64,000 bases of DNA, taken from Candidatus Giovannonibacteria bacterium RIFCSPHIGHO2_12_FULL_44_22 (lineage in GTDB: Bacteria; Patescibacteriota; Minisyncoccia; UBA11713; 2-01-FULL-45-33). Where the stretch lies: assembly GCA_001778695.1 (NCBI GenBank), contig MFHU01000003.1, positions 75,112-139,111 of the forward strand, read 5' to 3'. Made by a program: the position numbers and the translations under genes. The notes beneath the pieces were generated by a model. It saw nothing but the letters and a program-made list of their open reading frames with translations. It searched no databases and was not told where the DNA came from. The first letter of the stretch is position 1. Every line of letters starts with the position of its first letter. This document shows, one piece after another, positions 4,605 to 52,537 of this stretch.

Positions 4605-6828
<2,224 letters not shown>

Positions 6829-7483: not shown

Positions 7484-7765
7484 ATGATTTCTAAAGAAGA
7501 AATAGAACATCTGAAGGATTTGGCAAGAGTAGAATTTGGAGCGAAGGAAACTGAAAAGCTTGCCAAGGATTTGGACGAGATTTTGGAATACATTGACCAA
7601 CTTAAAAAGGCGGACGTTTCAAACGCTCCGGAAATGACGCACGCGCTGGAGGGAGTAAAAAATATTGTTAGGAAAGATGAAAACAATAAATATAATTCAG
7701 AGGATTTAATCGGCGCGTTTCCCGAAAAAGAAAATAGCTATCTTAAGGTAAAAGCAATTTTATGA
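7484..7765 (+). CDS. gatC: Asp/Glu-tRNA amidotransferase subunit C
   Basis: 93 aa. Motif IEHLKDLARVEF...LDEILEYIDQL typical of GatC. Stop overlaps the gatA start. Confidence 0.8.
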   Translation: MISKEEIEHLKDLARVEFGAKETEKLAKDLDEILEYIDQLKKADVSNAPEMTHALEGVKNIVRKDENNKYNSEDLIGAFPEKENSYLKVKAIL

Positions 7766-9159
7766 CGATTTTAGAATTTCACAAAGCCCTTAAAAATAAA
7801 AAAACTTCCGCAAGAGAGACGGCAATTTCCTATTTGGACAAAATAAAAAAGGAAAATAAAAATTTAAACGCCTATCTGGAAATTTTTTCCGCCAGAGGGG
7901 GATCCGCATCTGGCGGAGAGTATGACGCGCTTAAGCAGGCAAAAGAAATTGACGAGAAAATCGCTTCGGGCGAAGAACCCGGCGCGCTTTGGGGCGTGCC
8001 GATTGCCATAAAAGACAATATTTTAATAAGAGGGGAAATTGCCTCCGCTGCCTCAAAAATTTTAGGAAATTACGTGGCTTCCTACGACGCGCATGTGATT
8101 GCAAAATTAAAAAAAGCTGGCGTAATATTTTTGGGGCGCACCAATATGGACGAATTTGCCATGGGTTCATCAACCGAAAACTCCGCCTACGGTCCGACAA
8201 AAAATCCGCGCGACACTTCCAAAGTTCCGGGTGGTTCATCTGGCGGCTCGGCCGCCGCCGTTGCCGGCGGCCTCGCCATGGCTGCCTTGGGTTCAGATAC
8301 CGGGGGCTCCATCCGCCAGCCGGCGGCTTTTTGCGGAGTTGTTGGTTTGAAGCCCACTTACGGCGCGGTTTCCCGAAACGGACTTATCGCCATGGCTTCT
8401 TCTTTGGACCAAATCGGACCAATTACCCAAACAGTGGAAGACGCGGAAATTTTATTTAATACAATTAAAGGAAAAGACGAAATGGATTCAACTTCTGTTT
8501 TACCAAAAGTTTTCAACCGCGCCGCCAAAATTAAAACCATTGGCATTCCCAAAGAATATTTCAGTGAACAAGGTCTTGACCCCCATATTAAATCAGAACT
8601 TGATAAAGTAATTAACAAACTTGAGAAAAATTATGAAATCCACGAAATCAACTTGCCGCATACCAAATACGCTCTGGCTTGCTACTATATAATTGTACCG
8701 GCGGAAGTTTCATCCAATATGGCGCGGTTTGACGGTGTAAGATACGGCGAAAGAAAAGATGCCGGAAATTTGATTGAAACTTACAAAAAAAGCCGCGGCG
8801 AGGGAATCGGGCTTGAAGTCAGAAGAAGAATTTTGCTGGGCACTTACGCGCTTTCGGCGGGCTACTACAACGCGTATTATTCCAAAGCCCAGCGCGTCCG
8901 TTCGTTGGTTGCAGAAGATTTTAAAAAAGCATTCGCCGAAGTTGATCTGATTTTGGCGCCCACCGTTCCTACTCCGCCTTTTAAAATCGGCGAAAAAACA
9001 AATGACCCATTGGCTATGTACCTTTCCGATATTTATACTATTCCGGCAAACTTGGCGGGCGTGCCAGCGCTCACTTTGGCTTCAGGCGCCCAGCTTATTG
9101 CCCCGCATTTTGAAGAAAATAGATTATTTGAAGTCGGTAAATTTATAGAACATGATTGA
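7762..9159 (+). CDS. gatA: Asp/Glu-tRNA amidotransferase subunit A (amidase)
   Basis: Amidase signature GGSSGGSAAAVA plus GSDTGGSIRQPA. 465 aa. Confidence 0.9.
   Translation: MTILEFHKALKNKKTSARETAISYLDKIKKENKNLNAYLEIFSARGGSASGGEYDALKQAKEIDEKIASGEEPGALWGVPIAIKDNILIRGEIASAASKILGNYVASYDAHVIAKLKKAGVIFLGRTNMDEFAMGSSTENSAYGPTKNPRDTSKVPGGSSGGSAAAVAGGLAMAALGSDTGGSIRQPAAFCGVVGLKPTYGAVSRNGLIAMASSLDQIGPITQTVEDAEILFNTIKGKDEMDSTSVLPKVFNRAAKIKTIGIPKEYFSEQGLDPHIKSELDKVINKLEKNYEIHEINLPHTKYALACYYIIVPAEVSSNMARFDGVRYGERKDAGNLIETYKKSRGEGIGLEVRRRILLGTYALSAGYYNAYYSKAQRVRSLVAEDFKKAFAEVDLILAPTVPTPPFKIGEKTNDPLAMYLSDIYTIPANLAGVPALTLASGAQLIAPHFEENRLFEVGKFIEHD
7889..7918 (+). repeat. GC-rich palindromic mini-insert in gatA, TCCGCCAGA-N12-TCTGGCGGA, encoding (S)ARGGSASGG(E)
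   Basis: 9-bp inverted arms. A near-identical element is present in asnB at 32926-32956. Confidence 0.6.
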
Positions 9160-12333: not shown

Positions 12334-12420
12334 TTATAGTTTAGTCGCTACAAATAATGAGCTTAGAATAACATAAATTAACGCTTTGCAGAATAAAACT
12401 GTAAGGTTATTAAAATAAAA

Positions 12421-12455
12421 CAGAAGTGGCGGATTTTATCCGCCACTTCTGTTTT
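12421..12455 (-). terminator. Terminator hairpin downstream of the tRNA cluster; A/T runs flank both sides, so possibly bidirectional
   Basis: Perfect 12-bp stem CAGAAGTGGCGG-ATTTTAT-CCGCCACTTCTG, flanked by T and A runs. Confidence 0.6.
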
Positions 12456-12540
12456 ATCATTTTCCAAGCCGATCGGTCTTCCGATAAAAAGTGTTTCGGG
12501 CGCGGGCGATGGGATTTGAACCCACGATCTCCTCTCATGA

Positions 12541-12656
12541 CCCCGCACCAAAAATTTCCAGCGGGCCCGAAGGGATTTGAACCCTCGATCTTCCCCGTGA
12601 CAGGGGGACGTGTTGCCAGGCTACACCACGGGCCCATATTTAATTTTGGTGCGGGG
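12541..12656. repeat. 13-bp perfect inverted repeats (CCCCGCACCAAAA and TTTTGGTGCGGGG) bracketing tRNA-Asp with 8-nt spacers on each side
   Basis: Read directly. The left arm is 12541-12553 and the right arm is 12644-12656. Confidence 0.85.
12562..12635 (-). tRNA. tRNA-Asp (GUC)
   Basis: GGGCCCG-TG-GTGT-AGCCTGGCA-ACAC-G-TCCCC-CTGTCAC-GGGGA-AGATC-GAGGG-TTCAAAT-CCCTT-CGGGCCC-G. Confidence 0.85.
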
Positions 12657-12712
12657 CGGGCAGGGAGGCGTGTTAACCAGGCTACACCACGCCCGCATAA
12701 TTTTTTAGCCAA

Positions 12713-13329: not shown

Positions 13330-14473
13330 AAACATGTCTAATATAGAAATCAAATCTTCGGAGGAGGTAGAGATAATAAAAACTCTTGAGGCCCGGAGCG
13401 ACCACGAGGCAAAAAGATTATTGCGTTTTTTGAAAATGCCGGATTTATCGCGCGCTAAAGCAAGCCCGCTTTATGAATTAATAGAGCGCCTAGTTAACCT
13501 CCCGGAATTTAAATCATTTGATGTTGTAAAAATTCCGGATATTGTCCCCGCCAAAGAAAGTTTTGATTTGTTTGATTTTCCGCTTGACCATCCCACGCGG
13601 AGCAAGTCGGACACATACTATATTAACGACGAATATATTCTTCGCACTCACACTACGGTCATGTGGTATTATTATTTGCTTTCGGAGGCGATTAAAGAAA
13701 AATTAAAAGGCGAAGCGCCAATCGGGGTTTTTTCCTACGGCAAAGTTTACAGGAAAGATGAAATAGATCGCCACCATATGAATGTTTTTCACCAAGTGGA
13801 CGGATTATACCTTTGCCGAAAAAACGAAAAAATTTTTGAAAGGCGGGATTTAGAAGAAGTCCTTGTGAAAATCGCTAAAGCAATATTCGGGAAAGACATA
13901 AAGTATCGCTTTAATGATGATTTTTTTCCGTTTACTTATTCCAGCATTGAAATGGAGATTGAGAAAAAAGATAAATGGATAGAAGTTCTTGGCGCGGGCA
14001 TCGCACAGCCGTCCGTTTTGGAGAAGCTTGGCGTTGATTCTAAAATTTGGGGCGGCTGGGCTTTCGGTTTCGGTTTGGAACGGCTTGCCATAATCAGTAT
14101 GGATTTGCCGGACATACGGCTTTTATGGTCGGAAGATCCGCGGATTAAAAAACAATTGCGCTTGGGAAATAAATATATTCCGGTGAGCAAATATCCGCCG
14201 ATTACTAGAGATATATCTTTTGTCGTCGCCAACGACTTTATTCCAAATAATTATTTTGATTTGATAAGGGATTTGGGAGGCGATTTGGTTGAAGAAGTTA
14301 AGCTGATTGATAAATATGAAAATCTAGAAAAATTCGGCACGGGAAAAATAAGCTACACATACAGAATAATTTACAGAAGCAACGACAGGACTTTGGTTTC
14401 GGGCGAAATTGATAAAATCCAAAACGAAATTTACAAACAAACCGCCAAGCAATTTAACGCCGAATTAAGATGA
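13322..14473 (+). CDS. pheS: Phenylalanine-tRNA ligase, single-chain (mitochondrial-type) form: PheS catalytic core plus a C-terminal FDX-ACB-like anticodon-binding domain
   Basis: HPTRSKSDTYYI...LRTHTT motif. Class II motif 3 GWAFGFGLERLAIISMDLPDIRLLWSEDPR. C-terminal SKYPPITRDISFVV...DLGGDLVEEVKLIDKYE...ISYTYRIIYRSNDRTL resembles the ACB domain of monomeric PheRS. No pheT lies adjacent. Confidence 0.7.
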   Translation: MIKNMSNIEIKSSEEVEIIKTLEARSDHEAKRLLRFLKMPDLSRAKASPLYELIERLVNLPEFKSFDVVKIPDIVPAKESFDLFDFPLDHPTRSKSDTYYINDEYILRTHTTVMWYYYLLSEAIKEKLKGEAPIGVFSYGKVYRKDEIDRHHMNVFHQVDGLYLCRKNEKIFERRDLEEVLVKIAKAIFGKDIKYRFNDDFFPFTYSSIEMEIEKKDKWIEVLGAGIAQPSVLEKLGVDSKIWGGWAFGFGLERLAIISMDLPDIRLLWSEDPRIKKQLRLGNKYIPVSKYPPITRDISFVVANDFIPNNYFDLIRDLGGDLVEEVKLIDKYENLEKFGTGKISYTYRIIYRSNDRTLVSGEIDKIQNEIYKQTAKQFNAELR

Positions 14474-15198
14474 AATCATTTTTACATTTGTTTTATAAAA
14501 TCCGCGGGAAATTTTTAGAAAATTCAGCTAAAAATAAACTTTCTAAATTAAAAAACAGCGAATATAGATTGCCGTATCAAATTCCTTATGTTTCGCAGTA
14601 CGCTTCTAAAGAATTAGCGGAGAGTTATGTTAAAAACGCCGAACTTTTGGCAAGTGACCCAAGGTGGCGCGATTTTGGCGCGGAAACGCCAGAAGAATAC
14701 GCTTTTTGGTCTAGGAGAATTTGCGGAATGGCCTGTTTTCAAATGATTTTATTATCACTTAGACGTCCGACGTCTAAGTTGATGGAATTAGGGAAAAAAG
14801 CGATGACCGCCGGATGCTATTTATTGGATCCCAAAAATCCAAAACGGCTCGTCGGGCTTTTGCATAAACCGTTTTTGAAATTTATTGATAAGTTTGGGCT
14901 TGCCGGGAAACTAATGTGGTATATCGGACCAGCGGTTATCGCCTATGAGATTTTAAATAAAAATTTTGTGATTGCTTCTGTAAGCCACGAAATACGCTTT
15001 AGAGATGCGCGTCCAGAAGATAAAACCGGGCACTTGGTTTTAGTTCATGGGTTTAAAATGAATGGAGGCATAATCGCTGGATTTTATATTCATAATCCTT
15101 CTGGTTTTTACGGCATCTCGCAAGAAAATCATTTTGTCCCGGCTGATGATTTTTTAAATTGCTTCTCGGGCAGGATTATTGTTTTGAAGTTAAAGTAA
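14470..15198 (+). CDS. Hypothetical papain-like (peptidase C39-like) protein
   Basis: VSQ...ICGMACFQMIL Cys block and HLVLVHGF His block. It contains the palindromic insert at 14757-14784. Confidence 0.35.
   Translation: MKSFLHLFYKIRGKFLENSAKNKLSKLKNSEYRLPYQIPYVSQYASKELAESYVKNAELLASDPRWRDFGAETPEEYAFWSRRICGMACFQMILLSLRRPTSKLMELGKKAMTAGCYLLDPKNPKRLVGLLHKPFLKFIDKFGLAGKLMWYIGPAVIAYEILNKNFVIASVSHEIRFRDARPEDKTGHLVLVHGFKMNGGIIAGFYIHNPSGFYGISQENHFVPADDFLNCFSGRIIVLKLK
14757..14784 (+). repeat. Palindromic element CACTTAGACGTC-C-GACGTCTAAGTTGAT inside a CDS, encoding LRRPTSKL
   Basis: An identical 28-nt copy lies at 28894-28921 in an unrelated GT4 gene. The core palindrome is 21 bp. Confidence 0.8.
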
Positions 15199-27302: not shown

Positions 27303-29438
27303 ATGAGCGAAAAACCTGCGGTTTTAGTTTTTACTACCGCTTATTTCCCGTTTGTGGGAGGAGCGGAAGTGGCGATACAGGAAGTGGCAAGAAGGCTCAA
27401 AAATGAGTACGATTTTTTTATTTTTACTTCAAGAATGGACGGCAAACTCCCAGCGCGCGAAAAAAGGCTAGAAGGATTGGTAATCAGAATTGGTTTTGGA
27501 AATAAATTTGATAAATTCTGGCTTTTAATTTTTGGATGGTTTGTAGCTTGGCGGGAATTGAGAAAGTGGCATAGAAAAATTATTTTTTGGGTTATGGATT
27601 TTTCGTTCGGGGCCGCGGTAGCTGGATTTTTGAAAATTTTTTATCCGAAAATTCCGTTGGTTTTTACAATTCAATATGGCTACGGCGACGAAAGAGTTAA
27701 AAAAGGCAGAGGTGGCCTTATGAATTTGGCATTTCGGCTGATACTTTCGCAGGCGGATTATGTTACGGCAATTTCAAATTATTTATTGAATTTATGCAAG
27801 CAGTACGGCTATATTGGCGAGGAAGCGGTAATACACAACGGGGTTGATTTAAAAAAGTTTACAAATCAAGAATCACGAATAGGAAATCATGTGATAATTT
27901 CAACCTCGCGGCGAGTTTACAAAAATGGTCTGGATATTCTGGAAAAGGCCTTCGAGATCATAAAAAAGAAATTTCCAGATGCCGAGTTGAAAATTGTTAG
28001 CGACGTTCCGTATGATGAATTGCCTAAATATTTATGGAAAGCTAGTATCTTCGTCAGACCCTCGCGCTCTGAGGGGATGGGCAATGCGTTTATTGAAGCT
28101 TTAGCGGCCGGATTACCGATAATTGGCACGCCTGTCGGAGGGATTTTAGATATTATTGAGGATGGGCAGACGGGTCTTTTCGCGAAAGTTGACGACCCAC
28201 AAGATTTAGCAGAGAAAATTAAAATTTTACTCGAAGATAAAAAATTGGTGTCGCAAATTATAGAAAATGGTAGAAAAATAGTTGAAGAAAGATTTTCTTG
28301 GGATAAAATCGCGGCGCAATACGCCGAGGTTTTTAATTCGCAATTAAATACAAAAAAAAGAATACTGATAGTCACAGGAATTTTCCCGCCCGATGTCGGT
28401 GGACCGGCGACATACAGCAAAATTTTACTAGACGAGTTGCCTAAAGAAAATTTTTGCGCAAAAGTATTAAGTTTCGGAAGCGTTAAATATTTGCCCAAAG
28501 GCATTAGCCATATTGCTTATTTCCTTAAAGCCATGCGGTTAGGCGCGCGCGCCGATATTATTTTCGCGCAGGATCCGGTGAGTGTGGGGTTGCCCGCGAT
28601 GCTAGCGGCAAAAATTTTGCGCAAAAAATTTATTTTAAAAATCGTGGGCGATTATGCTTGGGAACAAGGCGTTCAGCGGTTCGAGGTGAAAGAGATTTTA
28701 GATGATTTTTTAAATAAGAAATACGGTATTAATGTGGAGGTTTTGAGAAAAATAGAAAAATTTGTCGCAAATCACACAGAAAAAATTATCGTGCCGAGCG
28801 AGTATTTGAAAAAAGTTGTTTCGGCGTGGGGCGTAAATCCGAATAAAATTAAAGTAATTTATAATGCGTTTGATTTTAAAGACTTCGAACACACACTTAG
28901 ACGTCCGACGTCTAAGTTGATTGTTTCGGCGGGTCGTCTTGTTCCGTGGAAAGGATTCGGCACTTTAATTGAGATTATGCCAAAGATTTTAAGAGAAGTG
29001 CCGGACGCGAAGTTGATTATTATTGGAGATGGACCGGAAAGACACAAATTAAAATTACAAGTAGCCACTTGGCGGCTCGGCCGCCAAGTGGAACTTATAG
29101 GAAATCTGCCGCATAAAAAAGTTTTGGAATATCTCGCTTCCGCCGATGCTTTTATTTTAAACACTGCCTACGAAGGATTTTCGCACCAAATTTTGGAGGC
29201 GATGGCAATTGGGGCGCCTGTTATCACGACAAACGTTTGCGGAAATCCGGAGTTGGTGGAAAACAATGTCTCCGGAATTTTGGTCGAATTTAACGATAAG
29301 GAAGCGATTAAAAATTCTATTTTAAAATTATTGAAAGACGAAAAACTTACTCAAAAATTAACCTCCGCCGCTTTCCAAAAATCCAAACAATTTTCAAAAG
29401 AGAGGATGATTAATGAAACGATAAAAATATTATTATGA
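27303..29438 (+). CDS. Tandem two-domain glycosyltransferase (GT4 + GT4)
   Basis: Two EX7E-type motifs: SEGMGNAFIEALAAGLPIIGT and FSHQILEAMAIGAPVITT. Confidence 0.7.
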   Translation: MSEKPAVLVFTTAYFPFVGGAEVAIQEVARRLKNEYDFFIFTSRMDGKLPAREKRLEGLVIRIGFGNKFDKFWLLIFGWFVAWRELRKWHRKIIFWVMDFSFGAAVAGFLKIFYPKIPLVFTIQYGYGDERVKKGRGGLMNLAFRLILSQADYVTAISNYLLNLCKQYGYIGEEAVIHNGVDLKKFTNQESRIGNHVIISTSRRVYKNGLDILEKAFEIIKKKFPDAELKIVSDVPYDELPKYLWKASIFVRPSRSEGMGNAFIEALAAGLPIIGTPVGGILDIIEDGQTGLFAKVDDPQDLAEKIKILLEDKKLVSQIIENGRKIVEERFSWDKIAAQYAEVFNSQLNTKKRILIVTGIFPPDVGGPATYSKILLDELPKENFCAKVLSFGSVKYLPKGISHIAYFLKAMRLGARADIIFAQDPVSVGLPAMLAAKILRKKFILKIVGDYAWEQGVQRFEVKEILDDFLNKKYGINVEVLRKIEKFVANHTEKIIVPSEYLKKVVSAWGVNPNKIKVIYNAFDFKDFEHTLRRPTSKLIVSAGRLVPWKGFGTLIEIMPKILREVPDAKLIIIGDGPERHKLKLQVATWRLGRQVELIGNLPHKKVLEYLASADAFILNTAYEGFSHQILEAMAIGAPVITTNVCGNPELVENNVSGILVEFNDKEAIKNSILKLLKDEKLTQKLTSAAFQKSKQFSKERMINETIKILL
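28894..28921 (+). repeat. Second copy of the CACTTAGACGTCCGACGTCTAAGTTGAT palindromic element
   Basis: Identical 28 nt to 14757-14784. It encodes LRRPTSKL in-frame. Confidence 0.8.
29065..29091 (+). repeat. Hairpin element CCACTTGGCGGC-TCG-GCCGCCAAGTGG (12-bp stem) inside a GT CDS, encoding TWRLGRQV
   Basis: Read directly. A second copy lies at 29835-29873. Confidence 0.8.
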
Positions 29439-30484
29439 AAGTCTTAATGATAAGCGGGGATCCGGGGGTTTTGAATCCGAATAGCGACGCGGGAAAGCGG
29501 ATGGAAGAATATCGCCAAACTCTTGGAACATTAGATATTTTAGTCTGCCGAGGAAATATTTTTAGTTTTATTACAGGATTTTTTCGCGGCGTAAAAATCA
29601 TTCGCAAAAATAAACCCGAAGTTATTACAGCTCAAGATATGGAACATTCTCTATTTGCTTGGATTTTTTCAAGATTATTTAAAGTTCCGTGGCAGATGCA
29701 GATTCATACGGATATTTTTAGTCCGTATTTTTGGCAGGAATCTTTTAAAAATAAAATACGCGTTGTGCTGGCAAAATTCTTGTTGCCTCGAGCAAGTTGT
29801 ATTCGGGTTATGAGCGAAAGAATTAAAGAATCAATAACTTGGCGGCTCGGCCGCCAAGTGGCGGCCGAGTTATTCGTTACAGTTTTGCCAATTTTTGTGG
29901 ATACGGAAAAAATTAAAAATACGCCGATTAAAACCAATCTTCACAAAAAATATCCCGGGCGGTTTATAATTTTGATGGCATCGCGGATAACAAGAGAAAA
30001 AAATATCGTCATGGCCTTAGAGGCCATGCGCGGACTAACGCAGAATGACACGCGGACTAACGCAGAAAAGGTTTTATTGCTGATTATCGGTGATGGGCCG
30101 GAGAAAGAACACTTACGGCGTATGGCGTATAGCTTAAAGCTGGATGAGAGCGTTGTTTTTGAGTCAGCTACTTCCGACCTCGCTTCTTATTATAAAACCT
30201 GCGATTTGTTTTTGCTCACCTCCGATTACGAAGGGTACGGAAGAACTTTGATTGAGGCGGCGGCCATTAAAGCCAAAATAATCTCCTCCGATGTCGGAAT
30301 AGTTCCGGAAATTTTAGAGTTGGATTGTATTTTTAAAATTGGTGATAAGGATGGTTTGGCTGAAAAAATCAACGCCGCTTTGGCAGGCCAACTCAAGCCG
30401 CCAAAACCTGTGATTTTTCAAACAAAAGAGGAATATCTAAGATTATATAAGAATAACTTGGAACAATGCCAAAAAATATTTTAA
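29435..30484 (+). CDS. Glycosyltransferase family 4
   Basis: C-terminal YEGYGRTLIEAAAIKAKIISSDVG. Confidence 0.6.
   Translation: MKVLMISGDPGVLNPNSDAGKRMEEYRQTLGTLDILVCRGNIFSFITGFFRGVKIIRKNKPEVITAQDMEHSLFAWIFSRLFKVPWQMQIHTDIFSPYFWQESFKNKIRVVLAKFLLPRASCIRVMSERIKESITWRLGRQVAAELFVTVLPIFVDTEKIKNTPIKTNLHKKYPGRFIILMASRITREKNIVMALEAMRGLTQNDTRTNAEKVLLLIIGDGPEKEHLRRMAYSLKLDESVVFESATSDLASYYKTCDLFLLTSDYEGYGRTLIEAAAIKAKIISSDVGIVPEILELDCIFKIGDKDGLAEKINAALAGQLKPPKPVIFQTKEEYLRLYKNNLEQCQKIF
29835..29873 (+). repeat. Second copy of the TTGGCGGCTCGGCCGCCAAGTGG hairpin element, extended by CGGCCGAGTTATT
   Basis: ACTTGGCGGCTCGGCCGCCAAGTGG is identical to 29067-29091. It encodes TWRLGRQV. Confidence 0.8.
30011..30072 (+). 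repeat. Hairpin ATGGCCT-TAG-AGGCCAT followed by a tandem 22-bp duplication (CGCGGACTAACGCAG x2) inside a GT4 CDS
   Basis: Read directly. It encodes MALEAMRGLTQNDTRTNAEK. Confidence 0.7.
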
Positions 30485-31509: not shown

Positions 31510-32339
31510 GAGAAAAAATTCCATGCTCTATTGGTGTTCTCACTTTAAACTCGGGCGGCACTTTGAGGCGCTGTTTGGATTCGCTTAAAGATTTTACAGA
31601 AATCATAATTTGCGACGGCAATAGCACTGACAACACTTTGGAAATCGCCAGGGAGTATGGCGCCAAAATCGTAAAACAGTACGATTCCGATGAGCCGAAT
31701 TTGCGTTGTGAAAAAGACAAGGCCAATGTCCGGATGCGCAATATGCGAGCGGCTTCTTACGACTGGTATTTTTTTATGGATTCGGACGATATACTCCCCG
31801 ATGGAATTACGGAAGAGATTAGAAGCATAGTAACGAATCCTGGTCCGCAATTTTTAGTTTATCGTATGCCCGGGCGTATTTTTATTGATGGACGAGAGAT
31901 AAAACACGAAGCTAGTTACCCTTCGTATCAGACTAGATTGATAAACCGAAAAATCAATCCTTATTTCAAAGGCCGCGTGCATGACCGTCTGGAATTTGAC
32001 CGCAAAAAATATAAAGTAGGGGAATTAAAAAATTATTATGACTTTCATTGGTCAAAAGACCGGGTCCAAAATTATTGGAAGTATCTTAAAATGTATTCCG
32101 GTTGGGAGGCGGAAGTCGCTAACGGCGGGCCGTGGCTGGCATTTTTTTACTGGTGTGTTTATAAACGACTCCGCATCATCGCCGGATATCTCTATAGAAT
32201 TCCTTTAATGTATTTGCGGTACGGATTCCGGGATTCCATGCCTTTAAAACTTCAGCTTTTAACCTTGTGGTATCATTTTTATCTTTTATATTTATTTACC
32301 AAGAAGCAAATTTTTTATGTGCGCAATAAATGGGTTTAA
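31506..32339 (+). CDS. Glycosyltransferase family 2
   Basis: GT-A fold: IGVLTLNSGGTL...ICDGNSTDNT and the DxD motif FMDSDD. Confidence 0.6.
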   Translation: MREKIPCSIGVLTLNSGGTLRRCLDSLKDFTEIIICDGNSTDNTLEIAREYGAKIVKQYDSDEPNLRCEKDKANVRMRNMRAASYDWYFFMDSDDILPDGITEEIRSIVTNPGPQFLVYRMPGRIFIDGREIKHEASYPSYQTRLINRKINPYFKGRVHDRLEFDRKKYKVGELKNYYDFHWSKDRVQNYWKYLKMYSGWEAEVANGGPWLAFFYWCVYKRLRIIAGYLYRIPLMYLRYGFRDSMPLKLQLLTLWYHFYLLYLFTKKQIFYVRNKWV

Positions 32340-34137
32340 CTTCAAAGACGAGGGGCTGATCTTGAAAATGAATCAGGCAACGCGCCACAGGGGCCCAGAC
32401 GGCACAGGAATTTTTTTGGGCGAAAAAATTTCTTTAGGGCATAATCGCTTAAGCATAATTGACTTGAGCGATGCCGCAAATCAGCCTATGTTTTCCTCCG
32501 ACGGCAATTTAGTGATTAGTTTTAACGGAGAAATTTATAATTTCCGCGAGATTAAAAGAGAATTTGAAGATTTTTATAAATTTAAAACCAATAGCGACAC
32601 GGAAGTTATTTTAGCCGCTTATCAAAAATGGGGCGCCGAATTCGTTAAAAAATTAAACGGGATTTTTGCTTTTGTAATTTGGGACAAAACTAAAGAAGAA
32701 TTATTTTTAGCGAGAGACCACATAGGCTTGAAGCCTTTATATTATTTTTTGGATGGCGATAGATTTATTTTTTCTTCTGAAATTAAAGCTATTTTGGAGC
32801 ATGATGTGCCTCGGAAGCTCAACCGCGAAGCATTTAATATTTATTTAAGAACGCTTTACGCGCCGGCGCCGCTCACTATGTTTGAAGGAATTTATAAATT
32901 CCCGCAGGCGCATTATGGCGTTTTCTCCGCCAAAGGCGGATCTGCCTCGGGCGGAAAAAATGGCGAATTTAAACTCACAAAATATTGGGAAATTCCAGTA
33001 ATAAAATATTTTGATACTCCTTTTAAAATTTTGGCGAAAAATTTGCGCGGTGAAATTTTAAAAAGCGTGGAGCGGCAATTAATTTCCGACCGGCCGATCG
33101 GGCTTTACCTTTCCGGCGGGATTGATTCCAGCGCGGTGCTAGATGCTATGCATGAATTTAGAAACAATATTGATACTTTTTCAGTGGGCTTTGAATTGCC
33201 TAATAAAGATGACGAAAATAAATTCAACCAGGATTTTTATTTGGCCAAGCGCACGGCGGCGCTCTATGGGACCAGGCACCATGAAATTTTATTGGAAGAA
33301 AAAGAAGTGCTGAATCTTTGGGAAAAAGTTTTTTTACAGCTTGACGAGCCGATTGCCAACTCCACTGCCATCCCGATGATGAAATTAGCCGAATTCACCA
33401 AGGGCCATGGGGTAGATGTGGTTTTGGGAGGCGACGGCGGGGACGAACTTTTCGGAGGGTACGAAAGATACAGATTGAGCAGAATTATTGGCTATTTCCC
33501 AAAAATATTGTCATTTTTGCCAAAGGGAGTGGACATATTTTCCCGTTTTATGTTTCAAAAAGATCCTGTTTTAAATGAAGTTTTGCAAAAAAAGTTTTTT
33601 GACAGAGAAGTTTCAAGATCGTTTTTTGAAGAACGCTATTTTAAAGAAAATCCGTTCAAAACTTTTGAGGAACTTTTTATGGACGTGGACAGGCGGACGT
33701 GGCTTGTTGATGAGTCGCTAATGCGGACGGATAAAATGTCTATGTTCTCGGCGGTTGAGGCGAGGGCGCCTCTTTTGGACAAAAATCTTATTGAATTCGC
33801 GGCGAAAATTCCCAGAAAATACAAAGTCAGCGCATTCAACACAAAAATTATTTTAAAAGAGGCGTTTATGGGACGGATTCCGGATTTTTTATTATCCCAG
33901 CCGAAACGTGGCTGGTTTTCTCCGGCGGCCAAATGGTTGAGGAACCCCCAAATTCATGCTACCGCTAAAAATATTCTCTCCAAAAATTATTACGCCGAAA
34001 CCGCGCCTATATTTAATTGGGAAAATGTTGATAAAATTCTAAAAGACCATATTGAAGGCAGAAGATACAACCTCACAATTTTGTGGGCGTTGATTAATTT
34101 TCAAGTTTGGGCGAAACTCTATAAAGTTAAATTATGA
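32317..34137 (+). CDS. asnB: Asparagine synthetase (glutamine-hydrolysing)
   Basis: N-terminal MCAING with catalytic Cys2. PP-loop SGGIDSS. 606 aa. Confidence 0.85.
   Translation: MCAINGFNFKDEGLILKMNQATRHRGPDGTGIFLGEKISLGHNRLSIIDLSDAANQPMFSSDGNLVISFNGEIYNFREIKREFEDFYKFKTNSDTEVILAAYQKWGAEFVKKLNGIFAFVIWDKTKEELFLARDHIGLKPLYYFLDGDRFIFSSEIKAILEHDVPRKLNREAFNIYLRTLYAPAPLTMFEGIYKFPQAHYGVFSAKGGSASGGKNGEFKLTKYWEIPVIKYFDTPFKILAKNLRGEILKSVERQLISDRPIGLYLSGGIDSSAVLDAMHEFRNNIDTFSVGFELPNKDDENKFNQDFYLAKRTAALYGTRHHEILLEEKEVLNLWEKVFLQLDEPIANSTAIPMMKLAEFTKGHGVDVVLGGDGGDELFGGYERYRLSRIIGYFPKILSFLPKGVDIFSRFMFQKDPVLNEVLQKKFFDREVSRSFFEERYFKENPFKTFEELFMDVDRRTWLVDESLMRTDKMSMFSAVEARAPLLDKNLIEFAAKIPRKYKVSAFNTKIILKEAFMGRIPDFLLSQPKRGWFSPAAKWLRNPQIHATAKNILSKNYYAETAPIFNWENVDKILKDHIEGRRYNLTILWALINFQVWAKLYKVKL
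32926..32956 (+). repeat. GC-rich palindromic mini-insert in asnB encoding (S)AKGGSASGG(K)
   Basis: TCCGCC...GGCGGA arms. Paralogous to the gatA element at 7889-7918. Confidence 0.6.
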
Positions 34138-35246
34138 AAAAGCTTGTTTATATTGCCAACGCCCGCATTCCCACTGAAAAAGCGCACGGGATCCAGATTA
34201 TGAAAATGTGCGAGGCATTCTCTGCTCAAGTGGTTGATGTTGAGTTGGTATTGCCTAGGCGCTTAAATCGCATTAAAGAAAATCCGTTTGATTATTACGG
34301 CGTTAAAAAGAATTTTAAAATCACCAAACTGCCCACTATAGATTTTATTACTTTAGGCCTAGGACAGATAGGATTTTTTCTCGAGACTTTTATATTTCTA
34401 ATTGCGTCTAGAATCTATTTATTTTTTAGAAGCTACGATATTTTATATACGCGCGAAGAGTGGGCTGGACTGTTTTTTAGAGATTTTGGCGTAGAAATTC
34501 ATTCTTTGCCGGCTAGACCGAGTTTTTTACATAAAAAAACCTGGCGGAAAGCCAAAGCAATTTTTACGCTTACCAGCTTTTTAAAAAATGAGCTTATAAA
34601 ATTCGGCGTTTCGGAAAATAAAATTCTAATCTTGCCGGATGCGGTGGATTTAGCTAAATTTGACATAAAAATTTCCAAAGAGGAGGCAAGAGAAAAACTA
34701 AACTTACCGCAGGACAAAAAAATTATTTTATACATCGGAAGTTTTTATCTTTACGATTGGAAGGGAACCGATGTATTATTGGAAGCTGCAAAGAATTTTG
34801 GAGAAGATTTTTTGTTTTTGCTTGTCGGAGGTTCAGAAAAGGAAATCTCAAATCTCAAATCGCAAGTCACAAATCTCAAAAATATTAAGTTTATTGGCCA
34901 TAAGCCATATGCCGAAATTCCAAATTATTTAAAATCCGCCGATATTTTAGTCTTGCCGAATAAAGCTGGGCACAAAATGTCGGAGAAACATACTTCGCCA
35001 CTCAAACTTTTTGAATACATGGCTTCAGGGCGGCCTATTGTGGCATCGGATTTGCTGTCTCTTCGTGAAATTCTCACGGAACAGGAGGCAATATTTTTCA
35101 AACCGGACGACCCATTAGATTTAGCGCTCAAGATTAAAGAAATTTTAGTCAACCAAAGTTTGGCCGAGCAAATATCTCAAAACGCCCGTGAAAAAGTTCA
35201 AAACTACACCTGGCAAAACCGCGCCCATCGCGCATTGATTTTTTGA
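34134..35246 (+). CDS. Glycosyltransferase family 4
   Basis: EKHTSPLKLFEYMASGRPIVASD. Confidence 0.6.
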   Translation: MKKLVYIANARIPTEKAHGIQIMKMCEAFSAQVVDVELVLPRRLNRIKENPFDYYGVKKNFKITKLPTIDFITLGLGQIGFFLETFIFLIASRIYLFFRSYDILYTREEWAGLFFRDFGVEIHSLPARPSFLHKKTWRKAKAIFTLTSFLKNELIKFGVSENKILILPDAVDLAKFDIKISKEEAREKLNLPQDKKIILYIGSFYLYDWKGTDVLLEAAKNFGEDFLFLLVGGSEKEISNLKSQVTNLKNIKFIGHKPYAEIPNYLKSADILVLPNKAGHKMSEKHTSPLKLFEYMASGRPIVASDLLSLREILTEQEAIFFKPDDPLDLALKIKEILVNQSLAEQISQNAREKVQNYTWQNRAHRALIF

Positions 35247-51601: not shown

Positions 51602-52537
51602 ATGAATAAGAAAAAAATTTTGGTTACGGGTATCGCCGGTTTTATTGGAAGCAATCTTGCTGATAGGCTTTTAGTAGCAGGGCACGAGGTATTAGGAATA
51701 GATAATTTATCTTATGGTTTAAAAGAACAAATCGCGCCGGAAGTAATTTTTCACAAGCTGGATATCCGGTCAAAAGATATTTATCCTCTGTTTGAGGGAA
51801 TAGACATGGTTTTTCATATGGCGGCAAAAAACTGCCTTTCTGACTGCCAAAAAGATCCGGTGGAAACGGCGGATATCAATGTCGTCGGCACGGTGAACGT
51901 TTTGGAGGCGGCCAGCCGAGCCAAGGTAAGAAAGGTCATTTACGCGGAAAGTTCGGACATGTATGGCGGCTTAAAAACCTTCCCGACCAATGAAGAAAAA
52001 ATACAGCCCGAAACTTTTTACGCGAATTCCAAAGCCGCAAGTCATTTTTTTGCCCAAAGCTACGTAAAATATCATCAGATGAATATTACTGGTCTCCGCT
52101 ATTTTAACGTTTATGGTCCGCGGCAAGACTGGCAAAGAACCGACCGGCCGATCGTGAGCGAATTTATTATCCAGCTTTTGCGCGGCGAGAGGCCGATTTT
52201 ATACGGCGAGGGTAGGCGCAGCAAGGATTATATTTATGTGGATGACATTAACGATTTTCATCTCTTGGCAATGGAAAACGACGCTACTAATGGCGAGGTA
52301 TATAATTTAGGCAGCGGCACAGCTACTAGTTTTAAGGAACTTTTGGACACCGTACAAAAGTTGTTGGGTAAGAAAGTGGAGCCTGAACTCCGCCCATCTT
52401 TGAGTTTTGGCGTGGAAAGGACAGAAGCCGATATTTCCAAAGCAAGAGCTTTAGGCTGGGAGCCGAAAACTTCTTTGGAAGAAGGATTAAGGCTAAGCAT
52501 AGATTATATTAAAAAACACGTTATCCCCAAATTATGA
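51602..52537 (+). CDS. NAD-dependent nucleotide-sugar epimerase/dehydratase
   Basis: KILVTGIAGFIGSNL and YANSKAASH. Confidence 0.7.
   Translation: MNKKKILVTGIAGFIGSNLADRLLVAGHEVLGIDNLSYGLKEQIAPEVIFHKLDIRSKDIYPLFEGIDMVFHMAAKNCLSDCQKDPVETADINVVGTVNVLEAASRAKVRKVIYAESSDMYGGLKTFPTNEEKIQPETFYANSKAASHFFAQSYVKYHQMNITGLRYFNVYGPRQDWQRTDRPIVSEFIIQLLRGERPILYGEGRRSKDYIYVDDINDFHLLAMENDATNGEVYNLGSGTATSFKELLDTVQKLLGKKVEPELRPSLSFGVERTEADISKARALGWEPKTSLEEGLRLSIDYIKKHVIPKL

Follow-up and report, generated by a model that had tools for sequence, protein, structure and literature searches.

We found that a 23-nt palindrome present twice in a 64,000-nt stretch of the genome of Candidatus Giovannonibacteria bacterium RIFCSPHIGHO2_12_FULL_44_22 (contig MFHU01000003.1, positions 75,112 to 139,111; hereafter the window) is very probably, with a probability that we put at roughly 0.8, a hairpin repeat of the repetitive extragenic palindrome (REP) type. 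It would be the cognate DNA element of a family of HUH/Y1 transposases that resemble the REP-associated tyrosine transposases (RAYTs) and are widespread in the Candidate Phyla Radiation (CPR, or Patescibacteria). We favor this reading because the hairpin is dispersed, because a cognate HUH/Y1 gene is bracketed by it, and because the specificity co-varies between paralogues of that gene.

The palindrome was originally noticed as part of a 28-nt sequence, CACTTAGACGTCCGACGTCTAAGTTGAT, that is found exactly twice in the window, both times on the + strand, at 14756-14783 and 28894-28921. The second position is as first given, whereas the first had been placed one base too high, at 14757-14784. No further copy was found in the window with up to three mismatches allowed, and chance or low complexity as the source of the repeat is ruled out by the absence of matches in 100 dinucleotide-preserving shuffles. 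The palindromic core, originally described as 21 bp, is in fact 23 nt long (11 + 1 + 11, ACTTAGACGTC-C-GACGTCTAAGT; hereafter the AGACGTC variant). Both copies are in frame, as had been claimed, in a C39-like gene and a double glycosyltransferase family 4 (GT4) gene, and they share the codon register xxA CTT AGA CGT CCG ACG TCT AAG TTG, which reads LRRPTSKL. The five identical bases of the 28-mer outside the 23-mer (C at the 5' side and TGAT at the 3' side) are host codons, and they need not be part of the element because AAG TTG (K-L) is kept in orthologues of both genes. A census of palindromes in the window revealed a GGCGGC variant with the same ends as the AGACGTC variant and a different codon register. 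When folded as single-stranded DNA, the two AGACGTC copies give -9.8 and -9.9 kcal/mol with z about -4.4 (-9.8 kcal/mol and z = -4.35 for the copy in the C39-like gene, 14757..14779), and the GGCGGC copy at 29067..29089 gives -16.7 kcal/mol with z = -6.26. The hairpins and their host genes are as follows.

14470..15198, + strand: host gene 1, a C39-like peptidase-fold protein of 242 aa (Pfam Peptidase_C39_2, 26.8 bits, cut-off 24)
14757..14779, no strand assigned: probable REP-type 23-nt palindrome, variant AGACGTC (ACTTAGACGTC-C-GACGTCTAAGT), read LRRPTSK in the C39-like gene
27303..29438, + strand: host gene 2, a fusion of two GT4 glycosyltransferase modules, 711 aa, with one AGACGTC and one GGCGGC copy
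28895..28917, no strand assigned: second, identical AGACGTC copy, read LRRPTSK in the linker between the domains of the second GT4 module
29067..29089, no strand assigned: GGCGGC variant, ACTTGGCGGC-TCG-GCCGCCAAGT, with arms reaching 29065-29091, read TWRLGRQV in the double GT4 gene
29435..30484, + strand: host gene 3, a GT4 glycosyltransferase of 349 aa, with the second GGCGGC copy
29837..29869, no strand assigned: second GGCGGC copy (29837-29859) and an overlapping palindrome, CTCGGCCGCCAAGTGGCGGCCGAG (29846-29869), read TWRLGRQVAAE in this next GT4 gene

The hairpin family has the form ACTT[AG]G-N11-C[CT]AAGT, a 23-nt unit with fixed ends and a covarying interior. In 803 kb of fetched CPR DNA, we counted 146 matches to the pattern ACTT[AG]N13[CT]AAGT where about 3 would be expected; no more than two positions are unpaired in 141 of them. 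All family matches are exactly 23 nt long when lengths of 21-25 nt are permitted, and 40 different interiors were seen. Covariation was evaluated over 63 distinct 23-mers, pre-filtered to at most three unpaired positions (a filter that dropped only 4 of the 146). In this set 98.1% of the cells are paired, compensatory changes occur in 5 of the 10 pairs, and pairing breaks down once the partner column is slid. Double-change cells number 139, compared with 42 in shuffles, and 139 was reached in none of 500 shuffles. The mismatches comprise seven of G.T type, three of A.C type and five others, with no clear bias for the sense strand. Diverged AGACGTC copies are rare (one single-mismatch copy in 341 kb), and we saw no conserved base beyond the ACTT...AAGT ends, apart from a frequent extension of the stem by C/G or A/T. 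Another site in the window, at 52339-52361 in the open reading frame (ORF) 51602-52537, has the ACTT..AAGT spacing of the family with arms of only 7 bp (ACTTTTGGACACCGTACAAAAGT); it could be decayed or nascent, or simply accidental (by chance, roughly one such match is expected in the window).

One scan of a genome collection, a search of the kind that the original prediction had advised, recovered the exact AGACGTC 23-mer (with either centre base) 45 times in 38 loci. The carriers are six Giovannonibacteria metagenome-assembled genomes (MAGs), Zambryskibacteria, other Parcubacteria, several MAGs labelled Saccharibacteria and a Wolfebacteria MAG with 10 copies; one carrier is labelled Bdellovibrionales and the others are CPR. 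Each genome has 3-10 AGACGTC copies. An assembly or adapter artefact is ruled out, since separate assemblies made by several projects, nearly all of CPR bacteria, hold the same 23-mer in frame. Gene conversion between the two window genes, originally offered as a source of their identity, is unneeded, given that other genomes have this 23-mer at no fewer than 38 further loci. The exact 23-mer has no match in a viral contig collection, and a phage origin was rejected on this ground.

Most family copies are located in genes: 86 of 142 (61%) lie within ORFs of at least 150 aa, and all four window copies are intragenic. The register xxA-CTT...AAG-T (L-x5-K) is used by 67 of the 86 copies in long ORFs; many of these 67 are orthologous, so the frame bias is not a tally of independent events. 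The AGACGTC variant is read in long ORFs as LRRPTSK (22 times), LRRRTSK (three times) and, in a few cases, LDV(R/G)RLS. About 40% of the copies fall between genes, where a few bases on either side are often complementary as well and terminator-like hairpins often lie alongside. Nearly all copies are solitary 23-mers, with occasional adjacent or overlapping units such as the one at 29837-29869 in the window. A protein motif is ruled out as the source of the repeat by the identity at the nucleotide level, the three codon registers and the many intergenic copies. Rfam calls in the window are three tRNAs and nothing else, so a known RNA family was rejected. A DNA uptake sequence or a parS-like site was dropped as well, since the interior is variable, with covarying arms, and follows the transposase.

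The transposase gene was identified next to the palindrome itself. In locus L023 (Giovannonibacteria 45_13), a 214-aa ORF has one copy of the 23-mer 18 nt before its ATG and another 8 nt past its stop, and a third copy within this ORF is read QLRRPTSKL. Loci L030 and L037 have the same arrangement around and inside the 214-aa ORF, and the transposase gene is present in 4 of the 38 loci holding the exact AGACGTC 23-mer. The centre base has no consistent orientation relative to the gene (C, C, G in L023 and G, C, G in L037). The gene is syntenic between L023 (389-4064) and L030 (1381-6223), with the protein 93% identical and the three neighbours 53%, 67% and 82% identical, which would indicate either an unusually strong constraint on the cassette or its recent exchange between lineages.

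More distant homologues of the transposase are bracketed by different hairpins of their own. The one in L021 (33% identity) has three copies of the 23-nt hairpin TGTCCGAAACT-T-AGTTTCGGTCA, and the one in L019 (37% identity) has two copies of the 23-nt hairpin TGTTAAAAGC-TCG-GTTTTTAACA. A metagenome scan with a protein alignment yielded 578 relatives, from which the best 80 loci were kept, 73 of them with enough flank. The same hairpin is found both upstream and downstream of the transposase in 40 of these 73 loci. The upstream hairpin lies 8-53 nt from the tblastn match, with one at 118 nt, and the downstream hairpin lies 3-39 nt from the match in 29 of the 40 loci and up to 167 nt from it in the rest. 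In 26 of the 40, there are also one or two internal hairpins, at roughly +150-200 and/or +435-460 nt when counted from where the match begins. The interior of the hairpin varies between transposase loci, while the ACTT[AG]G foot is kept in relatives above about 44% identity; more distant relatives have other feet, for example CAGATAGGGGC, TGATTGAGGTC and TTCGGACGT. The closed genome CP066687.1 (651,549 bp) encodes at least three divergent paralogues, about 60% identical and in different genomic contexts, each with its own hairpin (GGAAGCC, AGCAATC and TGACCGAAACT). One of them lies between rpsP/khpA and trmD, in a normally conserved cluster of ribosomal protein and tRNA modification genes (L126 9272-11423), and trmD of this genome has a solitary AGACGTC hairpin inside. 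Solitary hairpins near transposases usually equal the local one (L054, L060 and L066), with L050 and L127 as exceptions; in L127 the internal hairpin copy is decaying. We found no transposase with exactly the GGCGGC-TCG hairpin, the nearest being GGCGGTC (L057) and GGCGGTT (L059).

The protein is a Y1 transposase by domain (Pfam Y1_Tnp, PF01797, 29.3 bits, cut-off 23), and its alignments have the invariant motifs G.YYH.YNRG, PNHxH (the HUH motif) and Y...N, which includes the tyrosine. Its relatives number more than 3,000, and those with names come from Giovannonibacteria and Patescibacteria MAGs; NCBI labels these as transposase and the Joint Genome Institute (JGI), for some, as REP element-mobilizing transposase RayT. 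A phmmer search of the transposase against the PDB returned nothing, and a profile search gave weak ISDra2 matches only (E = 0.05). An AlphaFold2 model (predicted local distance difference test, pLDDT, 81.9; predicted template-modelling score, pTM, 0.80) has a single Foldseek match in the PDB at E <= 1e-3, namely 4er8_A (E = 4.6e-6, probability 1.00), the structure of the E. coli RAYT in complex with a REP hairpin. The next matches (3-30) include the IS608, ISDra2 and IS200 transposases. The two internal hairpin positions are low-confidence loops of the model, and the length of these loops with and without a hairpin is equal at site A and within 2-3 aa at site B.

Comparison of orthologous sites bears on the age of the copies and on how they are gained. 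At the C39 site, an alignment of 25 homologues has no gap at LRRPTSK, and distant homologues have unrelated residues of equal length, for example NKTEQK and TGKKIP. Between them, seven orthologues have six arm sequences at this one codon position; the palindrome is perfect in six of the orthologues and has two G.T pairs in the seventh, as listed here.

Window: ACTTAGACGTCCGACGTCTAAGT
L039 and L041: ACTTGGGTGTC[G/C]GACACCCAAGT
L040: ACTTGGAAGCCGAGCTTCCAAGT
L042: ACTTGGCGTCCGGGACGCCAAGT
L045: ACTTAGCGACCTGGTCGCTAAGT
L043: ACTTGGACGTCCGGCGTCTAAGT, two G.T pairs

The flanks of these C39 orthologues are 55-77% identical, and a 54%-identical orthologue (L044) has no palindrome at the site and an unchanged length. 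Some of the C39-site arms equal arms that bracket a transposase elsewhere (L040 with L052 and L127; L045 with L063), all of these being matches across loci. The AGACGTC copy of the double GT4 gene is found at the same codon position, with 23 of 23 nucleotides identical, in two other Giovannonibacteria species (L002 and L014), where its flanks are 70-81% identical, and the region has only two residues more than the GT4 structure 5d00. At the 29067 site, L002 and L014 have NYKLQKTV, encoded by a (TTACAAA)x4 array of the same length, codon for codon. The length at this site also equals that of 5d00, and the Y/W-x-L-x3-V pattern of the GT4 fold is kept with the hairpin. At the 29837 site, L014 has LISNFQFLISN, encoded by a (CTAATTT)x4 array, and the window is merely 3 aa longer.

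Arrays in which a heptamer is repeated exactly four times (28 nt), such as (TTACAAA)4 and (CTAATTT)4, are strongly enriched in these CPR loci, with 16 four-copy arrays counted against 0 in simulations. They occur at L002 7784-7811, at L014 3662-3689 and 2880-2907, at 34843-34863 in the window and in many other loci; two of them, in other species, occupy the exact intragenic sites of the window GGCGGC hairpins.

These comparisons do not support the description of the repeat as a recent insertion. Three species share the GT4 copy at orthologous positions, with 70-81% identity in the flanks, and the C39 site is occupied by a hairpin in most orthologues. Neither window copy is longer than hairpin-free orthologues or distant homologues, and there is no target-site duplication, the flanks being TTATTATC|..|TGATGGAA and GAACACAC|..|TGATTGTT. 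The idea of a mobile palindromic unit stands in so far as the unit is dispersed, is palindromic at the nucleotide level and belongs to a transposase-linked family; its mobility is an interpretation.

By analogy with E. coli TnpA-REP and IS608 TnpA, the palindrome would extrude as a hairpin on single-stranded DNA, and the transposase would read the constant foot (ACTT[AG]G / C[CT]AAGT) together with the fixed 23-nt geometry. The enzyme would cut and rejoin at the hairpin foot with no target duplication, which would spread the hairpin and hold its copies to the sequence of the master copies on either side of the transposase gene. Hairpin binding, cleavage, and copying or overwriting by the CPR transposase are activities that we infer from these better-known relatives. 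Most surviving copies would be intragenic because CPR genomes are almost without intergenic space, and the intragenic copies would keep the frame open, usually as xxA-CTT...AAG-T (L-x5-K), in tolerant loops and linkers. The cross-locus arm matches, the agreement of solitary hairpins with local ones, the rarity of decayed copies and the almost unchanged lengths suggest that the current master sequence may overwrite existing sites or otherwise keep them identical to itself, the matches at issue being between loci. A tentative and, in our view, rather doubtful extension is that the RAYT-like enzyme overwrites 23 nt in place, with no insertion, by exchanging cassettes at the foot of the hairpin in single-stranded DNA. 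Overwriting of this kind would explain why intragenic gains add little or no length, why orthologous sites have different perfect palindromes of the kinds that bracket transposases, why decayed copies are nearly absent, and why the hairpins at two conserved loops of the enzyme's own ORF change with the flanking copies.

The CPR hairpins and their transposases share many properties with the REP/RAYT systems of Proteobacteria (the REPtron, including E. coli TnpA-REP/YafM, PDB 4ER8, and the REPINs of Pseudomonas). In both, short hairpins (20-40 nt) are scattered along the chromosome and flank a single HUH/Y1 gene on both sides with one and the same sequence, and each transposase variant has a cognate hairpin. 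There is no target-site duplication, the nearest fold is 4ER8 and copies persist at orthologous positions. The repeats also greatly outnumber the transposase genes, as with the four window copies and no transposase within 64 kb. Several observations weigh against a REP/RAYT-type system. CPR palindromes are near-perfect, with a loop of 1-3 nt and a paired foot (ACTTRG/CYAAGT), and have no unpaired GTAG or CGTC tag; they are mostly single units, not inverted doublets (REPINs or BIMEs), and unlike extragenic REPs, 61% are in frame within ORFs of at least 150 aa. Their copy number is low (roughly 20 ACTT-family copies per genome, estimated from the fetched DNA), one or two copies lie within the transposase ORF, and acquisition adds little or no length. 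The protein, of about 215 aa and with a long C-terminal helix, has the REP-associated tyrosine transposase (NF047646) as its best NCBIfam match, at 29.4 bits, which is far under the equivalog cut-off of 80. In the metagenome scan, the 40 of 73 loci with matching hairpins are only part of the loci under the criteria used. A tblastn search found no transposase homologue in the 64-kb window, and for the window genome the link between hairpin and transposase is by family, not by adjacency; we propose that the transposase genes for the window hairpins lie elsewhere in the genome. Lastly, the eight codons expected from a 23-nt insertion were gained at none of the five intragenic sites tested (four differ by at most 2-3 codons and one by +3 aa, and two of the five lie in the transposase gene), and such a near-absent gain in length is not what straightforward transposition of a 23-nt unit would predict.

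Several of these departures have counterparts in other repeats. REP/RAYT systems, intragenic REPs and in-frame Rickettsia palindromic elements (RPEs) are already described (Di Nocera et al. 2013, PMC3733652, and Ogata et al., cited there). Like those intragenic repeats, the CPR palindromes are in-frame parts of working genes, some of them for replication and repair, and the peptide segments that they encode are tolerated in loops. RPEs and intragenic REP dimers are reported there to add 20-50 residues, whereas the 23-nt CPR unit replaces 7-8 codons with little or no change in length; the RPE and CGTC repeats are not known to have a dedicated transposase, and the CPR hairpins have one. Our literature search found no paper linking RAYTs or REPINs with CPR or Patescibacteria. 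The paired foot, the single units, the mostly in-frame intragenic location, the copies in the transposase ORF and the little or no length change at the sites tested set the CPR hairpins apart from described REPs. HIP1 of cyanobacteria, an 8-mer palindrome, is frequent in coding regions, is kept at orthologous sites and is gained without length change; it spreads by point substitution, is linked to methyltransferases, and has neither hairpin covariation nor a transposase. The CPR hairpin is like HIP1 in being intragenic, orthologously conserved and length-neutral, and unlike it in its covariation and its transposase.

IS200/IS605 insertion sequences provide another possible origin, in which the hairpins would be solo ends of an ordinary autonomous element and the dispersed copies would be remnants of insertion and deletion. 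Enzymes of this group, such as the IS608 and ISDra2 TnpA proteins found among the structural matches, are likewise HUH enzymes of the Y1 type that recognise sub-terminal hairpins on single-stranded DNA and transpose seamlessly without duplication. Moreover, a Y1 gene closely bracketed by hairpins is the arrangement seen in IS200, the gene is found in varying contexts (the rpsP/khpA-trmD location in CP066687.1, for example), and its 93% identity between L023 and L030, next to neighbours at 53-82%, could mean horizontal replacement. We nevertheless consider this origin improbable, given that gene-free hairpins far outnumber genes (45 copies in 38 loci, 4 with the gene) and that the hairpin alone is dispersed, as isolated in-frame 23-mers without adjoining IS remnants, unlike the products of IS decay. 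The upstream and downstream hairpins are identical, whereas the left and right ends of IS200/IS605 elements differ; there is no tnpB; the paralogues within one genome are divergent (about 60% identical, with different hairpins), rather than identical IS copies; and the best fold match is a RAYT.

The palindromes might also be structural signals selected by the host, acting in mRNA stability, processing or termination or as sites for a dimeric DNA-binding protein or for uptake, with the transposase link being secondary. Exact conservation at orthologous sites despite diverging flanks, strong covariation, some G.U-compatible pairs (L043 and the GU cells) and the roughly 40% of copies that are intergenic, many with flanking complementarity and beside terminator-like hairpins, are consistent with such signals, and an RNA-element role has been proposed for REPs elsewhere (PMC3733652). 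The presence of both centre orientations and three reading registers in unrelated genes argues against this, as do the mismatch types, which have no clear sense-strand bias (7/3/5), and Rfam, which gives tRNAs only in the window. If a conserved host factor read the palindromes, their interior would not differ between genomes yet fit the local transposase hairpin, and a dimeric binder of double-stranded DNA would not need an interior that is palindromic but variable. We find host-selected signals unlikely as the primary explanation, to about the same degree as the IS200/IS605 origin, although such a signal may coexist with the element. Replication template switching, an established way to create and maintain hairpins, could form palindromes in place, with the identity in the window arising by a private short gene conversion or by coincidence. 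Gains that are length-neutral or nearly so and perfect arms whose two sides change together would fit this process. It leaves unexplained the constant ends, the constant 23-nt length, the 45 identical copies across several genomes and the systematic bracketing of the transposase gene by the same sequence, and one-mismatch relatives are almost absent (1 in 341 kb). We regard it as highly improbable as the origin of the repeat, while it may contribute to the co-evolution of the arms.

To our knowledge, the copying of REP/RAYT hairpins and their role in the host have remained unresolved since their first description, and all well-studied cases are extragenic repeats in Proteobacteria. In the ultra-small CPR genomes, most hairpins of this probable REP/RAYT-type system are translated as segments of housekeeping or cell-envelope genes. 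The many natural pairs of transposase and hairpin, with a fixed foot and a variable interior, are suited to studies of specificity, and the CPR system offers a direct test ground for in-place exchange of short cassettes by Y1 enzymes. Caution is also warranted in that identical short blocks in unrelated CPR genes, and hypervariable loops of 7-8 residues, can be repeat-encoded, not adaptive. In-place overwriting, if true, would amount to a natural, sequence-programmed, in-frame rewriting of 23 nt of DNA by a REP/RAYT system living within coding sequence.

The window contains other palindromes within genes. The NAD-dependent DNA ligase gene ligA (ORF 4816-6828) has a 31-nt perfect palindrome, ACCCCCACACCAAA-AGT-TTTGGTGTGGGGGT, at 5150-5180, in a segment of about 9 residues that E. 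coli LigA (2owo) lacks. Covarying relatives of this palindrome (ACCCACACACCAAAC..) are found in a PCMT gene beside one transposase paralogue of CP066687.1 (L126 7348-7378) and, at a similar distance from the orthologous transposase paralogue, in L021 (4794-4824). The ligA palindrome looks like a member of a second dispersed hairpin family, and at this site it is a true insertion. GC-rich palindromic segments in gatA (7882-7919, ORF 7762-9159) and in an asnB-like gene (32924-32961, ORF 32317-34137) are mutual reverse complements at 87%. Both encode FSA(R/K)GGSASGG(E/K), the GatA segment being a 10-residue insertion relative to PDB 3h0l and 4wj3, and they may represent a third intragenic palindrome family.

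Finally, a tRNA-Asp (12561-12635, within 12494-12703, minus strand) is located between an apparent tRNA 5' half (about 12703-12660) and 3' half (about 12535-12497). These putative halves belong to a second, similar tRNA, and complementary sequences, CCCCGCACC and GGTGCGGGG, adjoin the junctions. The arrangement could be a tRNA nested in, and splitting, another or the remnant of a duplication; ARAGORN, with introns of up to 300 nt permitted, did not call the split second tRNA. Downstream of the tRNA cluster, a 43-nt perfect palindrome at 12415-12457, with 20-bp arms and a 3-nt loop (ATAAAACAGAAGTGGCGGAT TTT ATCCGCCACTTCTGTTTTAT), looks like a bidirectional terminator.

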